Shown: positions 12,018 to 53,379 of the stretch, piece by piece
Numbering within the stretch: the stretch's first letter is position 1
Layout of the letters: the number at the start of each line of letters is the position of its first letter
Source: TPA_inf: Saccharomyces
Taxonomy: Eukaryota
DNA length: 64,000 nucleotides
Direction: 5' to 3'
Assembly: GCA_000146045.2 (NCBI GenBank)
Contig: BK006937.2
Span: 64,001 to 128,000 of the forward strand
Notes under the pieces: model-generated
Told to the model about the DNA's origin: nothing
Seen by the model: the letters and a program-made list of their open reading frames with translations, nothing else
Database searches by the model: none
Made by a program: the position numbers and the translations under genes

Positions 12018-13919
12018 TTAACACCAGAAGGCAACGACCCTTTTCCAATAAGGTCCGTTCCTCAAACGTTCCCTATATTCTTCGTCTTCTTGCTTGATTA
12101 ATTCTTCATCAAAGATTTGTCTATGAGAATCTAGGTCGATCTTGTCTGCCCTGATGAACAGTTTCCAATCCTTGTGCCAGACCTTGTAGCCGACATAAAG
12201 TGCAATCAAGATTGGCATAGCCAAGTAGTTTTCGAAAAAGGCTTGTGCATCCAGCTTACCTTCACCAATGGGGGCGATAGCGACCCAAAATTGGGCAATA
12301 AGAATTAAAATCATCATAATGCAAGCGTAGGCAGATCCCCAAACACCAGTTTGAGATTTGAAACCCAATTCTCCAAGAGATCTCCCTTGGACTTTCATGG
12401 CTCTTCTAAATCTAAGATGGGATAAACAAATGGCAGTCCATGTGAAAAGCTGAGACAAACCAGAAATGGCCAATAACCAAGTGAAAACTTGTTCTTCCTT
12501 GGGAGATGCAGCACAGAAGGCAATAACGGCAAACAATGCAGAAACACCCATGGCAATCAATGGTCTACCGGCTCTGTCGATGTAGGAGAAAACCTTAGGA
12601 GCGTAACCTTGCTCGGATAGAGTTAAAAATAAACGAGCACTGGAGTAGAAGGAGGAGTTAGCCATGGACAGCACGGAAAGTAGAATAACGGCGTTAATGA
12701 AGTGTGGGACGACACGGACACCGTGGGATGCAACAGCAATGACATATGGCGAGGCTTTAGTACCACCACCGGTAGAACCCAATAATTGATCGGAATTGTA
12801 TGGCACCAAGAAACCCAGTAGAATAATGGTAGCCAAGAATAGGAATAAGATTCTGTAGATCATTTGTTTGGCCGCACCTGGAATGGCCTTTCTTGGATTA
12901 GATTGTTCTGCAGTGGTGATGGCAATAAACTCTGAACCACCAAAGGCAAAAGCAGCAGTCACTAATGTTGCAGCAACACCTTTAAATCTGTCAATGGCAT
13001 GTTTACCATTGAAAGCGCCCGGATCGTGCCAGTATTTACCACCAATAAAACCATCATTACCAGCGCCACCAACATCGATGATAATACCAAGAATGAAGAA
13101 CCCAGTCATCATCAAAATTTTGCAACAGTTGAAGAAGAACTCAGCTTCTGCATAACCACGAGCACCGAAAATATTAATAGTAATCACCAAAACATAGAAA
13201 ATAATGACGAACACATCCGGGTTCACAGATGTCGTCCAATATTTGATAGTCATGGATGCGGTCACCAATTCCAGAGGACACACACACAGCCATTGCAAAC
13301 AATAAACCCAAGCGACTGCAAACCCAAAACCATCATCCACAAGGAAACTGGGGTATGCATTGTAGCCACCAGTCAAGTTACTATACACTAGCGCCATTTC
13401 ACCACATGCTTGAATAATACAGTACAAGATAGAACCCATAATAGCGTAACCAATAAGTAGTCCAGCTGGACCCGCATGAACCAACGCGGTACCGTTACCG
13501 ACCAATAACCCAGTACCGATACCCGTACCCAACGCAATCATCAGAACATGTCTAGGCTGAATGGTTTTCTTCAGCGAGTCCGACTTATGACCTGTATTAG
13601 CGCCTATGTTGTCCGAACTTTCATTTTTTTCTAGTTCTTGAGCCTGTCTAGAAGAAGGTGAGATAGCCGACGTAAGATCGTTCATTTGTGTTGCTTCTAC
13701 TTCATCCTGTGGACCCTGATCCGCTCTTTTAAAGGAGTCGAAAAACCTACGCACGGCAGAAGTGTTATGCTGTTCGTAACCTAAATGAGGTTGTGAGGAT
13801 GGACGGTCATTGGAGCCTGTTTCGAAATATTCAATTTCATTATCCTGCCCCGTGGCATGTATTTCTGTGGAGCTATTTTTCAAGTCTTTCAGTTCGTATA
13901 GAGACTTCGACGACGACAT
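12018..13919 (-). CDS. AGP1: Broad-specificity amino acid permease Agp1 (633 aa, APC/YAT family, 12 transmembrane segments)
   Basis: A 633-aa ORF with ATG at 13917-13919; typical yeast amino acid permease architecture and motifs. Confidence 0.93.
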   Translation of the reverse strand: MSSSKSLYELKDLKNSSTEIHATGQDNEIEYFETGSNDRPSSQPHLGYEQHNTSAVRRFFDSFKRADQGPQDEVEATQMNDLTSAISPSSRQAQELEKNESSDNIGANTGHKSDSLKKTIQPRHVLMIALGTGIGTGLLVGNGTALVHAGPAGLLIGYAIMGSILYCIIQACGEMALVYSNLTGGYNAYPSFLVDDGFGFAVAWVYCLQWLCVCPLELVTASMTIKYWTTSVNPDVFVIIFYVLVITINIFGARGYAEAEFFFNCCKILMMTGFFILGIIIDVGGAGNDGFIGGKYWHDPGAFNGKHAIDRFKGVAATLVTAAFAFGGSEFIAITTAEQSNPRKAIPGAAKQMIYRILFLFLATIILLGFLVPYNSDQLLGSTGGGTKASPYVIAVASHGVRVVPHFINAVILLSVLSMANSSFYSSARLFLTLSEQGYAPKVFSYIDRAGRPLIAMGVSALFAVIAFCAASPKEEQVFTWLLAISGLSQLFTWTAICLSHLRFRRAMKVQGRSLGELGFKSQTGVWGSAYACIMMILILIAQFWVAIAPIGEGKLDAQAFFENYLAMPILIALYVGYKVWHKDWKLFIRADKIDLDSHRQIFDEELIKQEDEEYRERLRNGPYWKRVVAFWC

Positions 13920-14439
13920 TGTGCGAAGCTATCTTTGTCTATATTAGCGTGCTTCTTCTATAAAGATTACATAATAAACTTGTTCTACATTGTTGTGGGC
14001 AGACCATCAAAGACAAAGCACTTATATATGTATGTAAAACAAATGAGTATTACGAGGAAAATAACAAAAAGAAACTAATCACGAAGGATATGAGTCTTGT
14101 TAGCGGACGAGGGGAAGATAGCGCAAGACACACGTATAGCCGACCTATCCTATGCATCTTAGCCGTCTTATCAGGATTGATTTGCGGTTCAGTGAAAGAG
14201 ATAACCACTGCCAAGCTGGAAGAAATGGCTAGAAGGCACTAAAAAAAGAGCCTCGCAGCGCAACTTAAGAACTGTGGACTACTAAGGAGCAGCAATCCGC
14301 TGGACGTGGGGGAGTTGAAAGTTGGCCGGATACTGCAACCTGCTTATCTATGACTCGATGAGACCGTTATTTAGTGCGATGGTGCCACTGGGAGTGCCAT
14401 CAACGGCAAAGTTGCAGCTTTTTGCAGCAGATCAGTGCC

Positions 14440-14480
14440 GCTTAGACGGCACCCTCAAGCGGCACTGAAGAACGGCGCGC
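14440..14480. promoter_or_regulatory. Direct and inverted CGGCAC/CGGCGC repeats (Stp1/Stp2 UASaa-like) in the AGP1 upstream region
   Basis: GTGCCG-cttaga-CGGCAC-cctcaag-CGGCAC-tgaagaa-CGGCGC read from the sequence, about 520-560 bp upstream of the AGP1 ATG. AGP1 is a known SPS-sensor/Stp1-Stp2 target (established knowledge). Confidence 0.45.
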
Positions 14481-14578
14481 TTTTTTTTTTCTTCTATTAT
14501 GCCGGTCAAGGAAAAAAAGAAACCAAAAAAAAATGCCGTGGGAGGCACGGATGCAAGATTTCTCCAAAGTCCCTTTTT

Positions 14579-14640
14579 AGCCGCCGAGGAAATGAGGAAA
14601 TAAGGGGTTAGCCGCCGAGTGAAGCCGCCGAGGTATAAAA
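14579..14640 (+). promoter_or_regulatory. Three tandem copies of the URS1 core AGCCGCCGA (Ume6 site) followed immediately by TATAAAAG
   Basis: AGCCGCCGA at 14579-14587, 14610-14618 and 14623-14631, then ggTATAAAAg at 14632-14641. Upstream there are A9 and T10 tracts. Confidence 0.5.
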
Positions 14641-15161
14641 GGGAGAATGCACACCTTCGTAAGAAGATTCTATTTGAAAGAGTGCTAGGTAAAGTCATCA
14701 AAAGGCTTATTGATATAATAATTGCTTTGCAAAATGGAAAACAAATGACTTTGAAAATGGGAGAAAACAAAAATTATATAGGTAATGTTGAGTTCTTGAT
14801 TTTTTTTTTGTTTCTGTCCTTGCCACAGCTCTTTTCATGGAACATTGGGCTCTAGGATAATTTTTTTATGTTTTCTGTTATGTTTGCCATGGTAGGTTGA
14901 GGTAAAGGCGCTCTTTCAGCAATGACGATTTATGCTAATATGTTTTCCTTAAAAGGAAAACATCTCGTTCTTTTTTTCGCGTGCTGTGCAAGAAAACGCG
15001 TAACGCAGTCTTAGTAAAAGGGCTCTCTTGAAAACTACATGAAAACTAAAAAAGAAGATGTAAATTTGGATACAACAGCGTAGAATAGCATAATAGAGTG
15101 TGCAATAAACGTGTATAGGCTTGATAATAGTGCTGACGTAAATTACCAGAACTACTGCAGT

Positions 15162-18100
15162 ATGACTGTGGCGAATACCGAGACCCATTCTGCTGCTAAA
15201 CCATCGAGTACTATAGGCCCATGGAAGCTTGGTGAAACACTGGGCTTTGGTAGCACCGGCAAGGTCCAACTTGCGCAACATGAGCGCACGGGCCATAGAA
15301 CAGCCGTCAAAGTAATCTCAAAGTCCATTTTCAACAACAACGGAAACCACAGTAACGACGATTCAGTGCTGCCATACAACATCGAGCGTGAGATTGTTAT
15401 TATGAAACTTTTGAGCCACCCAAACGTTCTGAGTCTTTACGACGTTTGGGAAACCAACAATAACCTGTACCTTATCCTGGAATACGCCGAAAAGGGAGAA
15501 CTGTTCAACTTGCTTGTGGACCACGGTCCCTTGCCCGAGCGTGAGGCCATCAATTGCTTCAGACAGATAATTATAGGCATTTCATACTGCCATGCGCTAG
15601 GAATAGTACATCGGGATTTAAAGCCAGAAAATCTTTTGCTCGATAGTTTCTATAATATCAAAATTGCGGATTTTGGTATGGCAGCTTTACAGACAGACGC
15701 CGACCTGCTAGAAACTTCTTGTGGGTCTCCTCATTATGCCGCTCCTGAGATCGTATCAGGTCTGCCCTATGAAGGATTTGCCAGCGACGTTTGGTCTTGC
15801 GGTGTAATCCTCTTTGCCCTTTTAACGGGTAGACTACCCTTCGATGAAGAAAACGGTAATGTTAGGGATTTGTTATTGAAAGTCCAAAAGGGCCAGTTTG
15901 AAATGCCCAATGACACCGAAATTTCCAGAGATGCACAAGATTTAATCGGCAAGATTCTCGTTGTAGATCCCAGGCAAAGAATAAAAATCAGAGACATCCT
16001 TAGTCATCCACTGCTAAAAAAATATCAAACCATTAAGGATTCCAAAAGTATCAAAGATTTACCTCGTGAAAATACCTATCTATATCCACTGGCTGACTCG
16101 AACAACCATACTAGCGCCTCTATCGATGATTCAATCCTACAAAACTTGGTGGTACTTTGGCATGGTAGACACGCCGATGACATCGTATCTAAACTGAAAG
16201 AGAATGGAACCAACAAAGAAAAAATTCTATATGCGCTACTATACCGTTTCAAACTGGACTCTGTAAGGGGATCGAATAAGAAGAACCGCAATAAGATAAA
16301 GAAAACCAAAAAAAATAAAAGATCTAGCACACTTTCGTCATCGTCATCATTATTATTGAACAACCGAAGCATACAATCTACGCCACGCAGACGTACATCC
16401 AAGAGGCATTCCAGGGAATTCTCTTCTAGCAGGAAGAGATCGTCCTTTTTACTGTCCTCGAATCCTACCGATAGTTCTCCAATACCTTTGAGAAGTAGTA
16501 AAAGAATTACACATATTAACGTAGCGTCTGCAAATACCCAAGCAACGCCAAGTGGTGTCCCGAATCCTCACAAGAGGAACTCAAAAAAACGGTCAAGCAA
16601 AAGATTATCTTATATGCCTAATACAAAAAGAAGCTCACTAACATCAAAATCATTATCAAACTTTACTAACCTAATAGATGATGATGATTGGGAGTACATT
16701 GAAAAGGATGCAAAGAGAACAAGTTCCAACTTCGCTACACTGATTGATGAAATATTTGAGCCTGAGAAATTTGAATTGGCGAAAAGAGAAAAGGCTGAAC
16801 TTCAAAGAAAAGTTCAGGAAGCAAAAAGGCAATCAGTGAATGCACAGAAGATTAATGAGGACGAGTTTGGATCCGAAGTTTCTGATGGAATGAAAGAGCT
16901 GAAAAAAATAAATGACAAAGTGTCGTCCCCGTTGATAAATTACGAATTTTCGCAACAAGAACTATTGCAAGATATAGACACCTTACTAACGAATCGTTAT
17001 CAACTTTCGTCATATACTAGGCCTATTTCGAGACTGGATCCCGGATTAACGCCTGTTACTGAGACACTTCCTAACAACCTAAAAGAAAAAACAGCTCTGC
17101 TGCAGGATACTGAAAAGAAAATAATAGAAACGATACGCAGATCCAAATTTTTAGGATCGCTACTAAATGTTAGAGGGGGACTATCGCCAGGGAAAAGTGA
17201 ACTGGCACCTATCGAAGAGTCTCCCATAGTTTCAACCACACCACTAATATATAATGATCGAATGGAACCTCGTAGGATATCCGATGTGGAAGTCCCACAT
17301 TTCACGAGGAAATCAAAACACTTTACTACTGCTAATAATCGGCGCTCAGTCTTATCTTTGTATGCGAAGGATTCAATCAAAGACTTAAACGAATTTTTAA
17401 TAAAGGAAGATCCTGATTTGCCTCCACAAGGAAGCACTGATAACGAAAGTAGGAGCGAAGATCCCGAAATAGCCGAGAGTATCACTGATTCAAGGAATAT
17501 ACAATATGATGAGGATGATAGTAAGGATGGTGATAATGTGAATAATGATAATATATTGAGCGACTTTCCTCAAGGCGTTGGCATATCACAGGAATACGAC
17601 ATGAAGGATAAAAATCCAAACCAATCTCCAATATCAAAAAGCGCAGAGCCCACACTGGTAGTGAAACTTCCGTCTTTGAGTTCTTTCCAAGGAAAAAACG
17701 CCAGTGGGTTGGGCCTATACCAAAGAGAGCCTTCTAAGGTAACCTTACCGAGCCTTACAAGTAATAACAGCAGCGTCGGAGAAAACATAGAGGATGGGGC
17801 GGAAAAAGGGACTGAGAGTGAGAAAATCGCTGCTTCCCTGTCAGACGATGACTTGAAGGAAGATAATGACAAGAAAGATAACGACACAGTGAATGCCCCT
17901 ACTACAGTAAAAAAGCCACCTAACAGCGTACTCTTGAAAAAATTCTCAAAAGGTAAAATCTTAGAACTTGAAATACATGCCAAAATACCTGAAAAGAGAC
18001 TATACGAGGGCCTACATAAACTACTAGAAGGCTGGAAGCAATACGGGTTGAAAAACCTGGTGTTTAACATCACTAATATGATCATAACAGGAAAATTGGT

Positions 18101-18275
18101 GAATGACAGTATTTTATTTTTACGATCTACGCTTTTTGAAATAATGGTTTTACCAAATGGAGACGGTAGAAGTTTAATTAAATTCAATAAGAAAACAGGA
18201 TCTACTAAAACGCTGACCAAGCTTGCTACAGAAATCCAAATTATTTTACAAAAAGAAGGTGTTTTGGACAAATAA
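15162..18275 (+). CDS. KCC4: Bud-neck Ser/Thr protein kinase Kcc4 (Nim1/Hsl1 family, 1037 aa)
   Basis: The track ORF starts at 15111; the first ATG at 15162 gives the 1037-aa protein MTVANTETHSAAKPS... Kinase motifs GxGxxG, HRDLKPEN and DFG are present; there is a C-terminal KA1-like region. Confidence 0.92.
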   Translation: MTVANTETHSAAKPSSTIGPWKLGETLGFGSTGKVQLAQHERTGHRTAVKVISKSIFNNNGNHSNDDSVLPYNIEREIVIMKLLSHPNVLSLYDVWETNNNLYLILEYAEKGELFNLLVDHGPLPEREAINCFRQIIIGISYCHALGIVHRDLKPENLLLDSFYNIKIADFGMAALQTDADLLETSCGSPHYAAPEIVSGLPYEGFASDVWSCGVILFALLTGRLPFDEENGNVRDLLLKVQKGQFEMPNDTEISRDAQDLIGKILVVDPRQRIKIRDILSHPLLKKYQTIKDSKSIKDLPRENTYLYPLADSNNHTSASIDDSILQNLVVLWHGRHADDIVSKLKENGTNKEKILYALLYRFKLDSVRGSNKKNRNKIKKTKKNKRSSTLSSSSSLLLNNRSIQSTPRRRTSKRHSREFSSSRKRSSFLLSSNPTDSSPIPLRSSKRITHINVASANTQATPSGVPNPHKRNSKKRSSKRLSYMPNTKRSSLTSKSLSNFTNLIDDDDWEYIEKDAKRTSSNFATLIDEIFEPEKFELAKREKAELQRKVQEAKRQSVNAQKINEDEFGSEVSDGMKELKKINDKVSSPLINYEFSQQELLQDIDTLLTNRYQLSSYTRPISRLDPGLTPVTETLPNNLKEKTALLQDTEKKIIETIRRSKFLGSLLNVRGGLSPGKSELAPIEESPIVSTTPLIYNDRMEPRRISDVEVPHFTRKSKHFTTANNRRSVLSLYAKDSIKDLNEFLIKEDPDLPPQGSTDNESRSEDPEIAESITDSRNIQYDEDDSKDGDNVNNDNILSDFPQGVGISQEYDMKDKNPNQSPISKSAEPTLVVKLPSLSSFQGKNASGLGLYQREPSKVTLPSLTSNNSSVGENIEDGAEKGTESEKIAASLSDDDLKEDNDKKDNDTVNAPTTVKKPPNSVLLKKFSKGKILELEIHAKIPEKRLYEGLHKLLEGWKQYGLKNLVFNITNMIITGKLVNDSILFLRSTLFEIMVLPNGDGRSLIKFNKKTGSTKTLTKLATEIQIILQKEGVLDK

Positions 18276-44970: not shown

Positions 44971-45104
44971 AAAAAAGCAGTAGCACATGGACACATTCAC
45001 GCCCGAACACTCCTAAAAAGCAGCCCACACAAGAAAGTAGATATAATGTAGGACACCCAGCTTGTCCATAATTGCTAATAGCATACTCAGGATAACATAT
45101 ATTA

Positions 45105-46670
45105 ATGACGACTCGTTTGCTCCAACTCACTCGTCCTCATTACAGATTATTATCCCTACCTCTCCAGAAACCCTTCAATATAAAAAGGCAGATGTCCGCT
45201 GCGAACCCTTCTCCATTTGGCAATTATTTGAACACGATCACTAAGTCCCTACAACAGAATTTACAAACATGCTTTCATTTCCAAGCAAAAGAAATCGATA
45301 TAATCGAATCTCCATCTCAGTTTTACGATCTCTTGAAGACAAAAATACTTAATTCACAAAATAGAATATTCATTGCGTCTCTGTATTTAGGCAAAAGCGA
45401 GACTGAGTTGGTGGACTGCATATCCCAGGCATTGACCAAGAACCCCAAGTTGAAAGTTTCTTTTCTACTTGATGGCCTTCGAGGAACAAGAGAATTGCCT
45501 TCCGCCTGTTCCGCCACTTTATTATCGTCTTTAGTAGCCAAATATGGGTCAGAGAGAGTGGATTGCCGATTGTACAAGACGCCTGCTTATCATGGTTGGA
45601 AAAAAGTCTTGGTTCCCAAGAGATTTAATGAAGGTTTAGGCTTACAACATATGAAAATATATGGGTTTGATAACGAGGTCATTCTTTCGGGAGCCAACCT
45701 TTCGAACGACTATTTCACCAACAGACAAGATAGATACTATCTCTTTAAATCTCGAAACTTCTCCAACTATTATTTTAAATTACATCAACTCATAAGTTCC
45801 TTCAGTTATCAGATTATAAAGCCAATGGTGGATGGTAGCATCAACATCATTTGGCCAGATTCGAATCCTACTGTTGAACCGACGAAAAATAAAAGGCTGT
45901 TTTTAAGGGAAGCATCTCAATTACTAGATGGCTTTTTAAAGAGTTCTAAACAAAGCCTCCCGATTACTGCCGTGGGTCAATTCTCCACATTAGTTTACCC
46001 AATTTCTCAATTCACTCCACTTTTTCCCAAATATAATGACAAATCGACCGAAAAAAGAACAATATTGTCATTGCTTTCCACTATAACAAGCAATGCCATT
46101 TCTTGGACGTTCACTGCAGGATACTTCAATATTTTGCCAGACATCAAAGCAAAACTGCTGGCAACGCCGGTTGCTGAGGCAAATGTAATAACAGCTTCCC
46201 CCTTTGCAAACGGCTTTTACCAATCAAAGGGCGTCTCATCAAATTTACCTGGTGCTTACTTGTACCTGTCAAAAAAATTTCTACAAGATGTATGTAGGTA
46301 CAGACAAGATCATGCTATTACATTAAGAGAATGGCAAAGAGGCGTAGTAAATAAGCCGAATGGTTGGTCATATCACGCAAAAGGTATTTGGCTTTCCGCT
46401 CGTGATAAAAATGATGCTAACAATTGGAAACCCTTTATCACGGTTATAGGATCTTCAAACTATACGAGAAGGGCGTATTCATTAGATTTGGAATCGAATG
46501 CTCTCATTATTACAAGAGATGAAGAGCTAAGAAAAAAAATGAAAGCAGAGTTAGATAATTTATTACAATATACAAAACCTGTAACTCTAGAAGACTTTCA
46601 ATCAGACCCAGAAAGACATGTTGGCACTGGTGTAAAGATAGCTACCTCCATTTTGGGTAAAAAACTTTAG
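45105..46670 (+). CDS. PGS1: Phosphatidylglycerolphosphate synthase Pgs1 (PLD superfamily with two HKD motifs, 521 aa)
   Basis: A 521-aa ORF; HKD motifs include HMKIYGFDNEVILSGANLSNDYF and HAKGIWLS; N-terminal mitochondrial targeting sequence. Confidence 0.92.
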   Translation: MTTRLLQLTRPHYRLLSLPLQKPFNIKRQMSAANPSPFGNYLNTITKSLQQNLQTCFHFQAKEIDIIESPSQFYDLLKTKILNSQNRIFIASLYLGKSETELVDCISQALTKNPKLKVSFLLDGLRGTRELPSACSATLLSSLVAKYGSERVDCRLYKTPAYHGWKKVLVPKRFNEGLGLQHMKIYGFDNEVILSGANLSNDYFTNRQDRYYLFKSRNFSNYYFKLHQLISSFSYQIIKPMVDGSINIIWPDSNPTVEPTKNKRLFLREASQLLDGFLKSSKQSLPITAVGQFSTLVYPISQFTPLFPKYNDKSTEKRTILSLLSTITSNAISWTFTAGYFNILPDIKAKLLATPVAEANVITASPFANGFYQSKGVSSNLPGAYLYLSKKFLQDVCRYRQDHAITLREWQRGVVNKPNGWSYHAKGIWLSARDKNDANNWKPFITVIGSSNYTRRAYSLDLESNALIITRDEELRKKMKAELDNLLQYTKPVTLEDFQSDPERHVGTGVKIATSILGKKL

Positions 46671-46807
46671 ATTCTATTCTATCATAGTATGTCGCCTGTA
46701 AATATGGAAAAATAAAAGAAAAAATAGTAATAATAAATGCATTATCTAAAACTCCTTAAATTTGCAAACATCGCAAAGCCATTAAGGTAGAGAATGAGCT
46801 GACCTTG

Positions 46808-47557
46808 TTATAGTTTTCCTTTTGGCAACCGTGGTTTCCGTCCTACGTAAACATACTGAACTTGACAAAGTATGACCAATAAGGTGACAAATTGTATCAA
46901 TTTTACCCAAAAGGGCGTTGAATTAAATGGTATCTCGTAAAACAATGCATTGGTCGGTATTACCAGTCTACCTAATAAATCGATAGATTCAGCCAAAAAT
47001 GATATCAATGCAAACTTTGATGATAAACCTACTGTTGAGCATCCCATCCAGTTTATACTCATTTGAGGCACATACTTGAAACATTTAAGCAGATTTGCCA
47101 TTACCCACAAATAATTTATGTGTTCCAAATAGAAAACGCCAAATTTACCTGAATTTTTCAACGGTAAATTAGAGATGGAACAGCCATATGTAAATATGCC
47201 TAATACAAGGAACACACTTATAATTATTATGGAAGTAATGGAAATGCCCTGATAAATATGTTTAGTTGACCTATAATAGTATAACTGCCTTAAAACCATC
47301 ATGCAGCAACAGGAAACGCAAAAATCTTTTAGAATGAGGAAACTGGATATAGGTATACTACGGGCATCATTCAACGGATAAAAAAGTGGGAATCTTTGAG
47401 ACAGTTGTTCCCTCACCAGAGATGAATAACAATAATGCAACGCGCAATACAAGTACAGACCATTACCAACAAAATCTAGCAGAAATAAATCATATGAAAG
47501 CCCGTAAATAGATCGATGAAGTTTATTATAGCGCTTTTGACATAGAATGGCGATGAT
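46808..47557 (-). CDS. YCL002C exon 2 (multi-pass membrane protein of unknown function)
   Basis: The frame stays open upstream of the track's TTG start, back to a 3' splice site (AG at plus 47558-47559, minus-strand ...cttacatag|ATCATCGCC). It contains many hydrophobic segments. Confidence 0.55.
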   Translation of the reverse strand: MIAILCQKRYNKLHRSIYGLSYDLFLLDFVGNGLYLYCALHYCYSSLVREQLSQRFPLFYPLNDARSIPISSFLILKDFCVSCCCMMVLRQLYYYRSTKHIYQGISITSIIIISVFLVLGIFTYGCSISNLPLKNSGKFGVFYLEHINYLWVMANLLKCFKYVPQMSINWMGCSTVGLSSKFALISFLAESIDLLGRLVIPTNALFYEIPFNSTPFWVKLIQFVTLLVILCQVQYVYVGRKPRLPKGKL

Positions 47558-47633
47558 CTATGTAAGAAATGGAAGTTTTCTCCCTTAGTTAGTCAAACCT
47601 TTCATGTATACTTTCTCCTTCAATTATGCATAC

Positions 47634-47675
47634 TGATAAAAAACCTGCCAAGCCCTGCAGAACAATAACAAGCAT
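47634..47675 (-). CDS. YCL002C exon 1 (42 nt, MLVIVLQGLAGFLS); intron 47558-47633 (76 nt) with 5' splice site GUAUGC and branchpoint GACUAAC
   Basis: ATG at plus 47673-47675. The exon ends on a codon boundary directly before GTATGC. The GACTAAC box lies ~31 nt from the 3' AG. Exons 1 plus 2 give 263 aa. Confidence 0.5.
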
Positions 47676-47915
47676 GTGAATGATTCAATATAATTGCTTC
47701 GCAGGGCTCCTCAACCTCTCCTCTGGAAAACCTTACCTCAATGAGGTTAAAAATTGTGGGTTTTTCGTTCGCAGAGGAAAAAAAAACTTGTCAAAACACG
47801 CCTCTGCAGTAGAACACGAATTATACATAAGAAAAATAACGATACAAGAAAGGCGATTTCGATTTGGGACTAAGTGTTACACGAAAGGCATAGAGTATCA
47901 AAAAAAGGAAGCAAG

Positions 47916-48482
47916 ATGGATTACGATAGCTCTGATACAATGAACGGTGGTTCAAGTAACCCCTTAATCACTAAGATGAATACAATGAAATTATTATATC
48001 AACACTATTTGGATAAAGTCACTCCTCACGCTAAGGAGAGGTGGGCTGTATTGGGTGGTTTGTTATGTTTGTTTATGGTTCGTATTACAATGGCCGAAGG
48101 CTGGTATGTGATTTGTTATGGTCTAGGTCTATTTTTATTGAATCAATTTTTAGCCTTTTTGACCCCAAAATTCGATATGTCCTTACAGCAAGATGAAGAA
48201 AACAACGAATTGGAAGCTGGAGAAAAATCAGAAGAATTCCGTCCATTCATCAGAAGATTACCAGAGTTCAAATTCTGGTATAACAGCATTAGAGCCACTG
48301 TCATTTCCCTCTTGTTGTCGCTATTTTCAATCTTCGATATTCCAGTATTTTGGCCCATCTTATTGATGTATTTCATATTATTGTTTTTTTTAACTATGAG
48401 AAGGCAGATTCAACATATGATAAAATATAGATATATACCCTTAGATATCGGTAAGAAGAAATATTCTCATTCTTCTAACTGA
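47916..48482 (+). CDS. RER1: Golgi-ER retrieval receptor Rer1 (4 transmembrane segments, 188 aa)
   Basis: The first ATG at 47916 gives MDYDSSDTMNGGSSNPLITKMNTMKLLYQHYLDKVTPHAKERWAVLGG..., a conserved Rer1-family sequence. Confidence 0.92.
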   Translation: MDYDSSDTMNGGSSNPLITKMNTMKLLYQHYLDKVTPHAKERWAVLGGLLCLFMVRITMAEGWYVICYGLGLFLLNQFLAFLTPKFDMSLQQDEENNELEAGEKSEEFRPFIRRLPEFKFWYNSIRATVISLLLSLFSIFDIPVFWPILLMYFILLFFLTMRRQIQHMIKYRYIPLDIGKKKYSHSSN

Positions 48483-49079
48483 TATACCCTGACTCCACAT
48501 ACCTATTCAACGAACACATTCGTATCTTAATTATATGTAAACAAAATTATATGATAGTTACAGAATAATTGTGATTATTTTCTCCTTCTACTCATCTTCT
48601 CTTATATTGGAAGAATACATGAAGTTATTGATTAAGCAAAATTGAAGGGAAGAGGCTCATTTTCTTCCATTTATAAATGGAGAGCTTGAGATGCCTCCAA
48701 TTGATAAATTTTTGTAAAGACTTTCAAGAAACATGTCTAAAAAGAATTGACAGCTTCGAACCTTTCTGCATAATTACTAATACCAAATTAGTGAGAAATG
48801 GGGTATGTCGAGGAATAAAGGATGCAAAAGAGAGAGTAATGTCATGCAAGTTGTGAGTTTGAAATGTTCACACGTTTATAATGTCCATACTCCGTGGCGT
48901 GCATGTGTTTTAGTGTATTAGTTTTCCAAGTTATTAAAGAACTTAGTAAATTTATCATCGAACGCATTTTGATTAAGTGGCACAATAGACTTCAATGGAA
49001 AATGAAAATCATATCTGTAGCAAAAACGACAGCGAAGATAACGGTTACACAATTATCACGTTGATTCGTCAACTTAAAG

Positions 49080-50024
49080 ATGACCTTTTTACAATTTATC
49101 AATAATAATAGACAAGAAGGACAAGGTTATATTTCAGAAAAATTATTCAAAACTAAGAAGAATGAGATGATAAGAAAAACAGTTACCAATTTAGTAGCTG
49201 TAAGATTAAAAAACTTATCCCACGAATTTGATGTAATAGAGAATTATCTGCGCTATATAGCTAGCACCAGTGAACATCTATTTACTGCTATTAAGCGCCA
49301 CTTTAACAAATGTGCCAGAAAACTTTTGAAAGAAGCAATCGACTCCAAATCAAACTCAGAAACTGCTACGGTGGTTCTGCAAGAAGGATTTTCTGGCATT
49401 TGCTTATTGAAAGCGTCTTCAATTATATTAAAACTAAAATTGAAGTTTCCAAAAAAGAAAGATAGAACTGATATTAGCAAATTGTGTGACAAGAAAGAAC
49501 GGATGACACAGTGGTTAGAAATTTCAATTTTGATGAACTGAGAATAATAATATTATGCTCCCCTGGATTTTATGCGAAGACACTGCTGAAAAAATTTCTG
49601 ATATATGCAGAGAAGGAGCAAATAAGCCAGTTTTAAGGAACCGAGATAAGCTGTTTTCGCCCATTGTTCTAGTTCTACAAAATATCTACAGGGAATCGAT
49701 GAGGTTGTAAGAAATCCTGAATACTCTATGATAGTGCATAACACTAAAAAGTTGAAAGAATCCCGTATCATGGACGATTTCCTTGAACATTTGAGCAAAG
49801 ACGATAACAAAGCATGGTATGGCGCGGAAGAAACCGAGAGAGCTGCAAAATTAGATGCAATAGAAACACTACTTATTACAGATAGTGTACTAAAAAGGAA
49901 CGACGTGAAAAAACGTGAAAAATACCTAGACCTAATAGAGAATAGTGGAAACAACAATGGCAAAATATTCGTACTCAGTACTTCAAAAATCACAGTGAGC
50001 AACTTGACAAACCAACAGATATAG
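49080..50024 (+). pseudogene. Dom34/Pelota paralog relic spanning three reading frames. It is currently readable as two ORFs: 49080-49541 (153 aa) and 49770-50024 (84 aa).
   Basis: The first ORF ends at TGA 49539-49541. The Pelota-like sequence continues in frame +2 (IILCSPGFYAKTLLKKFLIYAEKEQ at ~49550-49630). It then returns to frame 0 as ...KKLKESRIMDDFLEHLSKDDNKAWYGAEETERAAKLDAIETLLITDSVLKRNDVKKREKYLDLIENSGNNNGKIFVLST, a Pelota C-terminal eRF1-like domain. Confidence 0.6.
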
Positions 50025-50384
50025 GCTGTGTCTTAAAATATACCATCCAATACCTTGATGAACTTTTCAAAGATGACTAAAATAAGTGAAATTTCAACAT
50101 TAACTTCGAATTTTTTTCTTTTTATCTAACACTTGTCAAACAGAATATAAGGATTACTTGTCTTCTTTGCTACATATTGCTACCACTTCTATTACACAAT
50201 AGTTTCAATAGCTTGCAGCGTAGCTAAACTCTAAAATTTATCTAAATCACTCATATAAACCGAACCCTTCCCCTTCCGCTTATAGTACAGTACCTATACA
50301 TTTCATAAACATGGCATGGCGATCAGCGCCAAACAATATGGAAAATCCACAGAAAGCTATTCATTGAAAAAATAGTACAAATAA

Positions 50385-50501
50385 GTCACATGATGATATT
50401 TGATTTTATTATATTTTTAAAAAAAGTAAAAAATAAAAAGTAGTTTATTTTTAAAAAATAAAATTTAAAATATTAGTGTATTTGATTTCCGAAAGTTAAA
50501 A
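50385..50501 (+). other. CEN3: Point centromere CEN3: CDEI GTCACATG (50385-50392), CDEII 84 bp at >90% A+T (50393-50476), CDEIII TGTATTTGATTTCCGAAAGTTAAAA (50477-50501)
   Basis: All three elements are read directly. CDEIII contains the invariant CCG flanked by the TGATTT and GAAAGT half-sites. CDEII shows the A-run/T-run periodicity. Confidence 0.95.
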
Positions 50502-51684
50502 AAGAAATAGTAAGAAATATATATTTCATTGAATGGATATATGAAACGTTTACTGGTGGAAGTTTTGCTCATATATTATTATTCAATAGAAGTAATAAAG
50601 AAAAAGTTGGTAAAGCAACTTAACAGTAAAAAGGTAATGATTGAAAAAGTTTTTGAACATCTAAGCTATATGTTGATGGGTTTACAATTTTACCATTAGT
50701 ACTCATGCCTATACTTTTCTGTTCGTCCTTAATGTCCGCGATTTAGAGCAATCATTGAAAGTACTAGATACATTTTAGCCAGAGAGGACTCGTTGACGTA
50801 GAATTAAAATTCAAATGAATTTCCGCCCCATTCATATACCCCAAATAACAAACATATTAAAACTTCATAATTATTCAAAATGTGGAGTAGTATAGAAGAG
50901 CAGTACCTTCAAAATTGATTTCTTCAGTTTCCCACCCGGGATCCACTTGTCATGCGGTGAGAATCGTATATTGCGTATAATCCGTGTTTCATCACCCACA
51001 TTATAGTACAAACCTACTGGTGTAACCATTATCATATTCATGACTTGTAGTTAAAAATCTTTCACGATAAATTGAGGAAAAAATCACGTTAAATAGTTTC
51101 ATATCATTCTTTAGTTAAAGTCTGTGCATAAAAAGAGGATCGGGTGTTGTACTCGTTCTATCAAAATATTGTTATTGTTGCATTATCACACGAATTACAA
51201 TCAATTTTTTTATCTACAGGCCAGAGTACCTGAAATAATGGAATTAGATTCAAAAAGGATAGCTTAATCGGTCTTTATACTAATTATTTTACGCCCAGAA
51301 CGAAACATAACGTGCATTAAATCTCACTGTCACAACATTGTATATAATGGTAGCATCGTACTAACTATTGGCATTCATTCAATATTATACAATTATCTTA
51401 TTAATACTTTCTCAAGTAGTCTTGAAGACCAGCATGTAGGAAGGTGATGATATGCTCCGTAAATAATTGGAAATATTGAGATATAATAACGATGACAATA
51501 CTAACAAAAGTAATAGGTGAGCTCCGCCAATTGATTGTTTTGTTTTGAATATATATTGATGCTTAACAATTTAGTCGTCAAATAGCACCTGCAAAACCTA
51601 CCTCTTACAGGCTTTTTTTCAATTTACTCCCCATGTGGGAGTTCTACGTAAACCACTTAGAATGCAGTTTCTCTTCTAAATAAC

Positions 51685-51999
51685 ATGTTATATCTTCTGA
51701 AGAAATTGAAACATATTGATTCTTATGGTGAGAGCAATTTATCAATGTTTTATCTTAAGTTCTACTGCCCTTGGAAATTATGTCCTTTGCTTCCCATTTT
51801 ATATGGAAGAAACAAATCAGTACAAAATGCTTGGTCATGTCATAAGCTTCATCGATTTATTGACTTCCCAACTCCTTCGGCTAATATGAATTTTTTTTTC
51901 TTTATAAGAGTTTGCTATGGAACTGTCTCGCTGTTTATTTCAACGTTTCTAAAGAAAATATCCTTTTTTATTTATGTGAACTTCACTGTATACTTTTAG
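51685..51999 (+). CDS. Hypothetical 104-aa ORF in the pericentromeric gene-poor zone (YCR001W-like); coding status doubtful
   Basis: ATG at 51685. The protein is hydrophobic and low-complexity with no recognisable domain. Confidence 0.2.
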   Translation: MLYLLKKLKHIDSYGESNLSMFYLKFYCPWKLCPLLPILYGRNKSVQNAWSCHKLHRFIDFPTPSANMNFFFFIRVCYGTVSLFISTFLKKISFFIYVNFTVYF

Positions 52000-53379
52000 T
52001 ACCTTTCGGTGGATTTCTTCTATTTTACTCGATCACTTTTCTTGACTGTGCACTGTCGGTACAATCCTTATTGTATTAACTTGCGAAGAATATTTAGTCG
52101 TTCAGTAGGGTTCTTTTGGAAGAAATGCTAGCTTAACATGAGTGTGATCTCTTCTAGAATTAACTCTTTTGTTTATCCATGTAATCTGTTACCAACACAT
52201 AAAATGCATTGATAGACCAAATATCAAAAGCGTGCAGGCATCTCTTATCTAACAGTAAGCAAAATTTTGCCTGCGCTTTACTTCAATTTTCCATTCTTTT
52301 TCTGAGTCTTCGTCAGTGCATATTTTTTTACTGACAGCACCATTAATCAATCAGCTCACCTGCGCATTTCCAATAATCGTGCTCATGAAGATCATAAAGA
52401 AACGTCCAAACATGAAAGTGCTCCTTTAGAATTTCTAAATCCAAACGATATATGTACCCCTCGTTGATTTGTCCTAAAATGAGTATAGCTTGATTTTCGT
52501 TATATATTTTTTCATAGTATTCAGAAGAGGAGAGAGGATGTGATTTATCAATATCTGCATTAAGTAATGAACTTTGCCCTCTACTGAGGATATTCCCACT
52601 AGAAAACTATAAAAAATGGGAGAAAGTCAATCGCTGTTCAGGATTCAACATAGTTGTTGACAACGTATGATAAGAAGGCCAGTCCAGTCCTCCTAAGTTA
52701 GGTTAAGGGAGGTAGGGAAAAACTGAAGTGTAATGATAATCGAGGATGAAAGTGTGCGGCCAGAAAAATCTTTTCTTTTTATATTAATCTGTAATAAATA
52801 CAAGACCTATATATTAAAGTAAAACAACATTGAATCAGATCGCATACTGGTGTAGACGTGAAGTAGACATATGATAATCGAGCAGGGTGCTCAATTTGGT
52901 GTGGGACACGTTTGGGAAGGTTAAAAGAAGAGGTATATCCGGATTACATTTATTTTTGGCGTATTTTAATAATTTACTAAAAGCGCGAATAGCTTCCCAT
53001 TAGCAACGCTCAGGGACTCTTTCTAATGTTTATAGTAATACTTTAATAAGATGAGTACCAATTGCTTCTCTATGAGGCACAATCCCTAACCAAACTTTTA
53101 TTTAGAATTACCGGTAAACTCCGTTTTCTTCATAGATTAAATATTTGGCTAAGACAACAAAATGTTCTTTCATTTTACCAAACGAGAAGGTGATAGCTGT
53201 ACGCCAGAAAAGAAGGTAAAAACTCTCGCCAATCCAGCAATACCTGTACCTCTAGTTTTCGATCGCATTATGTCATTATGTAAAACCAAGGAGAGAAGCA
53301 AGTTACGGTGTTTTCATATAGAATAATTTGAGAATTCTTAATAACATAAGATATATAATCACCACCATTCTTATGAGAT

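Follow-up and report, generated by a model that had tools for sequence, protein, structure and literature searches.

A conserved cluster of URS1 motifs at the KCC4-side edge of the AGP1 control region in Saccharomyces

The intergenic region between the divergent genes AGP1 and KCC4 of Saccharomyces cerevisiae carries three perfect URS1 motifs that abut a TATA-like element. This cluster is statistically non-random and conserved, and it forms the outer, KCC4-side edge of a conserved block of AGP1 control elements. We put the chances at about even that the trio is a docking cluster for Ume6 and Sin3-Rpd3L that damps this mid-intergenic control region. The motifs, their conservation and the order of the elements are observed here and occupancy by Ume6 is taken from the literature; by analogy with other loci we infer recruitment of the co-repressor and the transcript that it would affect.

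The URS1 motifs and the binding of Ume6 were published between 2004 and 2008, the binding being cited here from a secondary account. New here are the conservation of the cluster across six loci, the positional retention of the TATA-like element, the lack of constraint on the next 300 bp and the placement of the cluster at the edge of the AGP1 block. The cluster as such therefore adds nothing new, and the remaining interest lies in the target transcript. The trio is among the strongest URS1 clusters one could design, is conserved together with a TATA-like element and, according to that secondary account, is bound in vivo. Despite this, the tables we searched give no sign that either neighbouring gene is a direct target of Ume6.

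The URS1 cluster and the AGP1 control block

The window analyzed is a 64,000-nucleotide stretch of S. cerevisiae chromosome III with an offset of +64,000, such that window position 14579 corresponds to chromosomal position 78,579; all coordinates below are those of the window unless stated otherwise. The AGP1-KCC4 intergenic region occupies positions 13920-15161 (1242 bp), and its features are collected in Table 1. The 9-mer AGCCGCCGA occurs three times on the plus strand (14579-14587, 14610-14618 and 14623-14631) and has no other match on either strand of the 64 kb. Dinucleotide-preserving shuffles give an expectation of 0.09 matches, and in 100 such shuffles three matches never occurred. Extended to 12 nucleotides, the copies read, from left to right, TTAGCCGCCGAG, TTAGCCGCCGAG and GAAGCCGCCGAG. 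All three carry the GGCGGC core of a Ume6 site as perfect AGCCGCCGA copies, two of them within TTAGCCGCCGAG, with flanks matching TAGCCGCCGA (TCGGCGGCTA). An earlier note on this DNA had described three perfect URS1 copies followed by a TATA box and had identified them as Ume6 sites. A motif scan bears out this arrangement, and the identification is right, given the full consensus match and the Ume6 ChIP result relayed in later literature. The distances given there are also correct, with the trio at -660 to -712 relative to the AGP1 ATG and the TATA element at -528 to -521 relative to that of KCC4. The three motifs and the TATA element are identical in two other S. cerevisiae contigs (L014 and L015).

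Table 1. Features of the AGP1-KCC4 intergenic region and its flanking genes (window coordinates; strand given where assigned)
Feature	Position	Strand	Remarks
AGP1 (YCL025C) CDS	12018-13919	-	633-aa amino-acid permease; an orthologous permease gene lies next to KCC4 in every Saccharomyces locus
AGP1 core-promoter TATA	14021-14030	-	about 105 bp upstream of the AGP1 ATG
Most conserved intergenic block	14137-14183		contains a GATAAG site (AGP1 nitrogen control); probable GATA-factor site
AGP1 UASaa region	14432-14476		GCCG-N6-CGGC at 14437-14450 within a perfect 12-nt inverted repeat; two more CGGC up to 14476; conserved
Poly(dT)/poly(dA) tracts	14481-14533		between UASaa and palindrome; nucleosome-excluding role likely
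Near-invariant palindrome GCCGTGGGAGGCACGG	14535-14550		CCG-N9-CGG-like; 27 bp left of URS1 site 1
URS1 site 1 (TTAGCCGCCGAGG)	14577-14589	+	core AGCCGCCGA at 14579-14587; in 6/6 Saccharomyces loci, AGCCGCC invariant
URS1 site 2 (TTAGCCGCCGAGT)	14608-14620	+	contains TTAGCCGCCGAG (14608-14619), the longest stretch of invariant columns in the 1242-bp alignment
URS1 site 3 (GAAGCCGCCGAGG)	14621-14633	+	lineage-specific third copy
TATA element (TATAAAAG)	14634-14641	+	2 bp after the third motif; abuts the URS1 trio
Spacer right of TATA	14642-14920		unconstrained; 0-4% invariant columns (14620-14920), many indels, no conserved ORF or RNA
KCC4 proximal promoter elements	14975-15001		CGCGAAA/TCGCGT at 14975-14982; ACGCGT (MCB) at 14996-15001; conserved; predicted MBF/SBF binding
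KCC4 (YCL024W) CDS	15162-18275	+	1037-aa kinase; most similar in the database to Kcc4 proteins from Saccharomyces species

Five further AGP1-KCC4 regions were obtained through Kcc4 orthologues, from S. paradoxus, S. kudriavzevii, S. arboricola, an S. eubayanus-type locus (a subgenome of S. pastorianus) and one further Saccharomyces locus, and the divergent arrangement of the two genes is kept in all five. The six-way intergenic alignment holds 229 invariant columns among the 1242 S. cerevisiae positions, and conservation across these sensu stricto species peaks at the URS1 sites. In each of the six loci, two or more TTAGCCGCCGAG-type sites point the same way, with a third copy restricted to S. 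cerevisiae and S. paradoxus and degenerate or absent in the other four. Most of the conservation falls within a zone (14120-14620) that comprises the GATA block, UASaa, the palindrome and the URS1 pair and that joins up with the AGP1 elements. The MCB-type elements, about 170 bp upstream of KCC4, lie in another conserved zone of smaller size (14920-15040). The spacing from UASaa through the palindrome to the two URS1 sites is tight in all species. How far these elements lie from either ATG differs by 140-200 bp.

The block as a whole runs, in order, through the GATA block, UASaa, poly(dA:dT), the palindrome, two or three URS1 sites and the TATA-like element. UASaa has been defined as two inverted CGGC sequences six nucleotides apart (PMC7947893), and a scan with this definition returned the sequence at 14437-14450 as its sole match. 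This element lies at -518 to -531 of AGP1, within an inverted repeat that reads TCAGTGCCGCTT / AAGCGGCACTGA (14432-14468). Only about 130-190 bp separate UASaa from the trio, and the AGP1 control region therefore reaches this far. Hence, the argument that the cluster is too far from either gene to serve it, and is thus stranded, is weak for AGP1. A QTL study (PMC5831830) notes that a predicted Ume6 motif in front of AGP1 carries a SNP. We rejected this SNP as a variant of the trio, because it maps to AGP1 -523, inside UASaa. Conservation of the palindrome GCCGTGGGAGGCACGG extends to all six Saccharomyces loci, and it ranks with the best-conserved 20-mers between the two genes. Homopolymer tracts (T10, A9 and a T-run) at 14481-14533 and 14799 differ in length from those of contigs L014 and L015.

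The TATA-like element is kept in a different manner. In five of the six loci, a match to TATAWAWR lies 9-14 bp after URS1 site 2, but in the form of TATAAAAG, TATAAAAA or (TA)n. S. cerevisiae, S. paradoxus and S. kudriavzevii have TATAAAAR, the two S. eubayanus-like loci have (TA)n, and S. arboricola has ATACAAAAG at this position. Plus-strand matches to TATAWAWR occur at only one or two places per intergenic region, and 2-5% of the 30-nucleotide windows in these regions contain one by chance. Because the element is retained in position and not in sequence, the comparison suggests that it is used or at least under selection. Its conservation would make local promoter function possible.

Ume6 occupancy and the search for a target transcript

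Three UME6 sites near position 78 600 of chromosome III, in the AGP1 promoter, have been mapped to linker DNA (PMC2718629; Yassour et al., 2008). The same paper relays a ChIP-chip result for the trio from Harbison 2004 (P<0.001), and on this second-hand account the question of Ume6 occupancy raised by the earlier note is answered in favor of binding. A motif search published in 2006 (PMC1679804) had listed TCGGCGGCTAA at AGP1 -699 and -668, which are two of the sites, and gives the same form for MEK1 and other meiotic genes.

Evidence for a responding transcript is sparser. The supplements searched for four studies (PMC8153250, PMC7807719, PMC10550318 and PMC4288150), which are lists and not raw tracks, contain no entry for KCC4 or YCL024W. 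A search of the same four for KCC4, YCL024W, AGP1 and YCL025C gave AGP1 in a ume6-delta table as its sole match. The LUTI study (PMC8153250) combined TL-seq, nanopore sequencing and Ume6 ChIP-seq, and neither gene appears in any of its supplementary files. None of its 65 intergenic meiotic transcription start sites (TSSs) plausibly maps to the AGP1-KCC4 intergenic region. The tables searched in that study are restricted to 5′ extensions and to canonical targets known beforehand; therefore, induction at the normal AGP1 TSS would be invisible there, but they ought to show a KCC4 LUTI or an intergenic TSS. Neither gene is in the supplementary tables searched for a second meiotic TSS study and for a study of Ume6/Rpd3 transcript isoforms. 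After acute depletion of Ume6, AGP1 and KCC4 are not among the 165 responsive or the 144 direct targets, and KCC4 is absent from the list of derepressed LUTIs. A literature search that combined KCC4 with URS1, Ume6 or LUTI found nothing relevant.

The one positive entry is an increase of AGP1 by 1.80 log2 units in a ume6-delta strain (Table S3 of PMC10550318), a list that does not include KCC4 and that its authors consider largely indirect. In the portion of this table examined, many YCL/YCR and YIL genes are raised by about 0.6 to 1.1 log2 units. The strain looks as if it carried extra copies of chromosomes III and IX, a point on which the paper is silent. The rise in AGP1 may thus be due in part to copy number, which is our interpretation of those entries and not that of the authors.

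The proposals of the earlier note fare unequally in the light of these lists. A long KCC4 leader and an unannotated meiotic transcript are not borne out, since the tables searched for the two TSS-mapping studies and for Ume6 depletion have no entry here. For control of AGP1 by Ume6 the support is weak: the rise in the ume6-delta strain speaks for it, although this value is confounded, and the lack of a response to acute depletion speaks against it.

A putative co-repressor docking cluster and its alternatives

If the trio is a docking cluster, Ume6 on the URS1 sites would tether Sin3-Rpd3L and Isw2, as is established at other loci; both are mentioned in the literature on Ume6. These complexes would then remove acetyl groups from the one or two closest nucleosomes and shift their positions. 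Recruited Rpd3 is usually credited with a range of one to two nucleosomes, which here would cover the TATA-like element next to the trio (2-15 bp) and UASaa of AGP1 (130-190 bp). The cluster would therefore have two effects in vegetative cells: silencing of the orphan rightward TATA, such that the strong AGP1 UAS could not fire towards the KCC4 promoter, and a trimming of the output of that UAS. Should this be correct, Ume6 would also serve as a boundary by preventing a strong UAS from driving transcription into a neighboring promoter. The absence of a listed TSS at this position fits the silence of the orphan TATA. However, permanent silencing would be expected to let a TATA element decay. 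The retention of this one hints at use under some condition, and this counts against the proposed mechanism.

Alternatively, the cluster might be purely an element of AGP1, either a distal URS of the CAR1-like metabolic Ume6 regulon or an Ime1-dependent UAS active in sporulation medium. We regard this as rather unlikely, and we give equally little weight to its corollary, that the TATA-like sequence is irrelevant and merely AT-rich, nucleosome-excluding DNA. Conservation does run on contiguously from the AGP1 UAS elements, and AGP1 is the gene that rises in the ume6-delta strain. The sense strand of AGP1 reads TCGGCGGCTAA, the form shared with meiotic genes, and the earlier papers assigned the sites to AGP1 (PMC2718629 and PMC1679804). 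Moreover, induction at the normal AGP1 start would have escaped the LUTI-study tables. Against this, AGP1 is unresponsive to acute Ume6 depletion, and about 550-610 bp lie between the cluster and the AGP1 TATA box, more than the one or two nucleosomes usually given as the reach of Rpd3. A TATAWAWR match kept at a fixed offset in two sequence forms is also not expected of a bystander.

A third reading is that the cluster is a distal meiotic promoter. In early meiosis, Ime1 would make an activator of the Ume6 bound at URS1, and rightward firing of the URS1-TATA unit would give a 5′-extended, uORF-laden KCC4 mRNA (LUTI) or a non-coding RNA. Transcription of either one across the MCB-type KCC4 promoter would repress that promoter in cis. 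The usual layout of early meiotic promoters has URS1 immediately upstream of TATA, and that layout is found here, with the TATA-like element kept at 9-14 bp in five of the six loci. Most known LUTIs are driven by conserved, Ume6-bound URS1 sites. The placement also matches that of a LUTI promoter: the distal URS1-TATA (-528) is on the same strand as KCC4, and KCC4 has conserved proximal MCB-type elements of its own at -166 to -185, including TCGCGT at 14977. These elements suggest that the proximal promoter may be of the G1/S type. An invariant AAAGGGCTCT follows the MCB/SCB-type elements at 15017-15026, and together these elements lie about 140-185 bp upstream of KCC4.

A leader starting at about 14680-14760 would contain about 10-13 upstream ATGs, none of them in the last 100 nucleotides before the KCC4 ATG, and only short, non-conserved uORFs. 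However, the 13 ATGs in 14680-15161 are not above the chance level of 10.6 +/- 3.0. The hypothetical rightward transcript would include a single efficiency-type element (TATATA, at 14775), and Nrd1/Nab3 motifs along it would be few. Downstream of the TATA element we found no tRNA and no Rfam family; a match to the Rfam bacterial Phe leader (E 0.11) was rejected as far below the gathering score. A conserved small ORF was rejected as well, since a 112-aa ORF on the minus strand (14432-14770) and the short uORFs lie in indel-rich, unconserved DNA. With no conserved ORF, Rfam family or tRNA downstream, any rightward product is, on this comparison, unconstrained in sequence. Such unconstrained DNA would fit a transcript for which the act of transcription and not the transcribed sequence matters. 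Although a meiotic promoter agrees with the anatomy of the region, the published lists searched do not support it. KCC4 is missing from the supplements of the LUTI study, none of the 65 intergenic TSSs plausibly lies here, and the second TSS study and the depletion, derepressed-LUTI and isoform tables searched are equally without it. We therefore hold the meiotic promoter to be improbable. If it were real, one more meiotic interference transcript would exist. Whether the cluster is a meiotic promoter or the co-repressor docking site that we propose, the answer would refine the well-studied Ume6 regulon and not change it, and the question is in this sense a modest one.

The evolutionary history of the spacer offers a related scenario. 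AGP1/GNP1 and KCC4/GIN4 are pairs from the whole-genome duplication. The order permease (minus strand), SMT3 (plus strand) and kinase (plus strand) is found in the pre-duplication species L. thermotolerans, K. lactis and Z. rouxii, and also in the post-duplication species N. castellii and K. africana. In the chromosome IV copy of S. cerevisiae, SMT3 and GNP1 are inverted. The chromosome III copy has lost SMT3, and the AGP1-KCC4 spacer derives from the ancestral SMT3-containing arrangement, with the rightward TATA located where the SMT3 promoter once was. The URS1-TATA unit might accordingly be a conserved, Ume6-gated cryptic promoter in the place of the lost SMT3 duplicate, which we think doubtful. 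It is similarly doubtful that derepression, whether in early meiosis, upon Ume6 degradation or by a nutritional signal, would yield an unstable non-coding or 5′-extended RNA across the MBF-type KCC4 promoter. There is likewise only a small chance that published screens missed such an RNA because it is short-lived or remains below threshold.

It is far less credible that the URS1-TATA unit is a decaying, functionless leftover of the promoter of the lost SMT3 copy. The ancestral gene order and the place of the TATA agree with such a relic, as does one URS1-like sequence upstream of SMT3 in S. cerevisiae. However, the URS1 sites show the highest conservation in the intergenic region, next to DNA that is unconstrained, and Ume6 binds them in vivo according to the 2004 ChIP as relayed in PMC2718629. 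Further, no URS1 cluster occurs in any non-Saccharomyces locus compared, and no SMT3 coding remnant was found in the AGP1-KCC4 spacer (best tblastn E 0.46). A relic of the SMT3 promoter as the sole explanation is thus largely refuted by the pattern of conservation, and the alignment indicates that the cluster is a feature of the genus Saccharomyces under constraint. The S. cerevisiae SMT3-GNP1 spacer (L008, 1626-1634) carries a single imperfect URS1-like CTCGGCGGCAAAA, which lies upstream of both genes, at 242 bp from SMT3 and 717 bp from GNP1; its distance to the permease gene is similar to that between the trio and AGP1. Neither SMT3 nor GNP1 is in the Ume6 target tables.

It is also most improbable that the GCCGCCGA repeats are Stp1/Stp2 sites extending UASaa instead of Ume6 sites, because, although each repeat contains CGGC, the minus strand reads CGGC-N-CGGC and the true UASaa is about 130 bp away, the trio does not fit two inverted CGGC separated by 6 nucleotides, the full Ume6 consensus is matched over 10-12 nucleotides, and ChIP, in the second-hand account, assigns the sites to Ume6.

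Comparison with known URS1 promoters

The cluster shares traits with three kinds of URS1-containing promoters. Like CAR1, a gene of nitrogen metabolism in which a Ume6 site is located between UAS and TATA, it has the 9-mer AGCCGCCGA, identical in both, and a rightward order of UAS, URS1 and TATA, here UASaa (14437-14476), URS1 (14577-14633) and TATA (14634-14641), with the same order in all six loci. The neighbor AGP1 is a nitrogen- and amino-acid-regulated permease, and Ume6 occupancy is reported, if only at second hand. In contrast to the CAR1-type arrangement, there are three copies here instead of one, and the abutted TATA lacks an annotated gene. In addition, AGP1, the gene adjacent to the UAS, is transcribed in the opposite direction with its TATA about 600 bp off.

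Early meiotic promoters such as those of SPO13, HOP1 and IME2 similarly have a strong, Ume6-bound URS1 near the core promoter. Unlike these, the URS1-TATA unit described here is not followed by a conserved ORF or RNA, and the next 300 bp are unconstrained. With Ume6/Ime1 LUTI promoters (for example NDC80-LUTI; 74 cases in PMC8153250), the cluster shares conserved URS1 sites about 500 bp in front of an ORF of the same orientation, which is equipped with a proximal promoter of its own. The would-be leader contains many upstream ATGs, though not above the chance level. It differs from them in that a 5′-extended KCC4 transcript is absent from the published lists searched.

The 65 intergenic meiotic TSSs discussed above include two entries for chromosome III, at 111.1 kb and 230 kb in SK1 coordinates. 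The GLK1 entry suggests that, at 52 kb, SK1 and S288C coordinates differ by at most about 2 kb. Of the two entries, the meiosis-induced intergenic TSS at 111.1 kb (SK1 chrIII:111127-111167) may fall within the window, at roughly 45000-52000.
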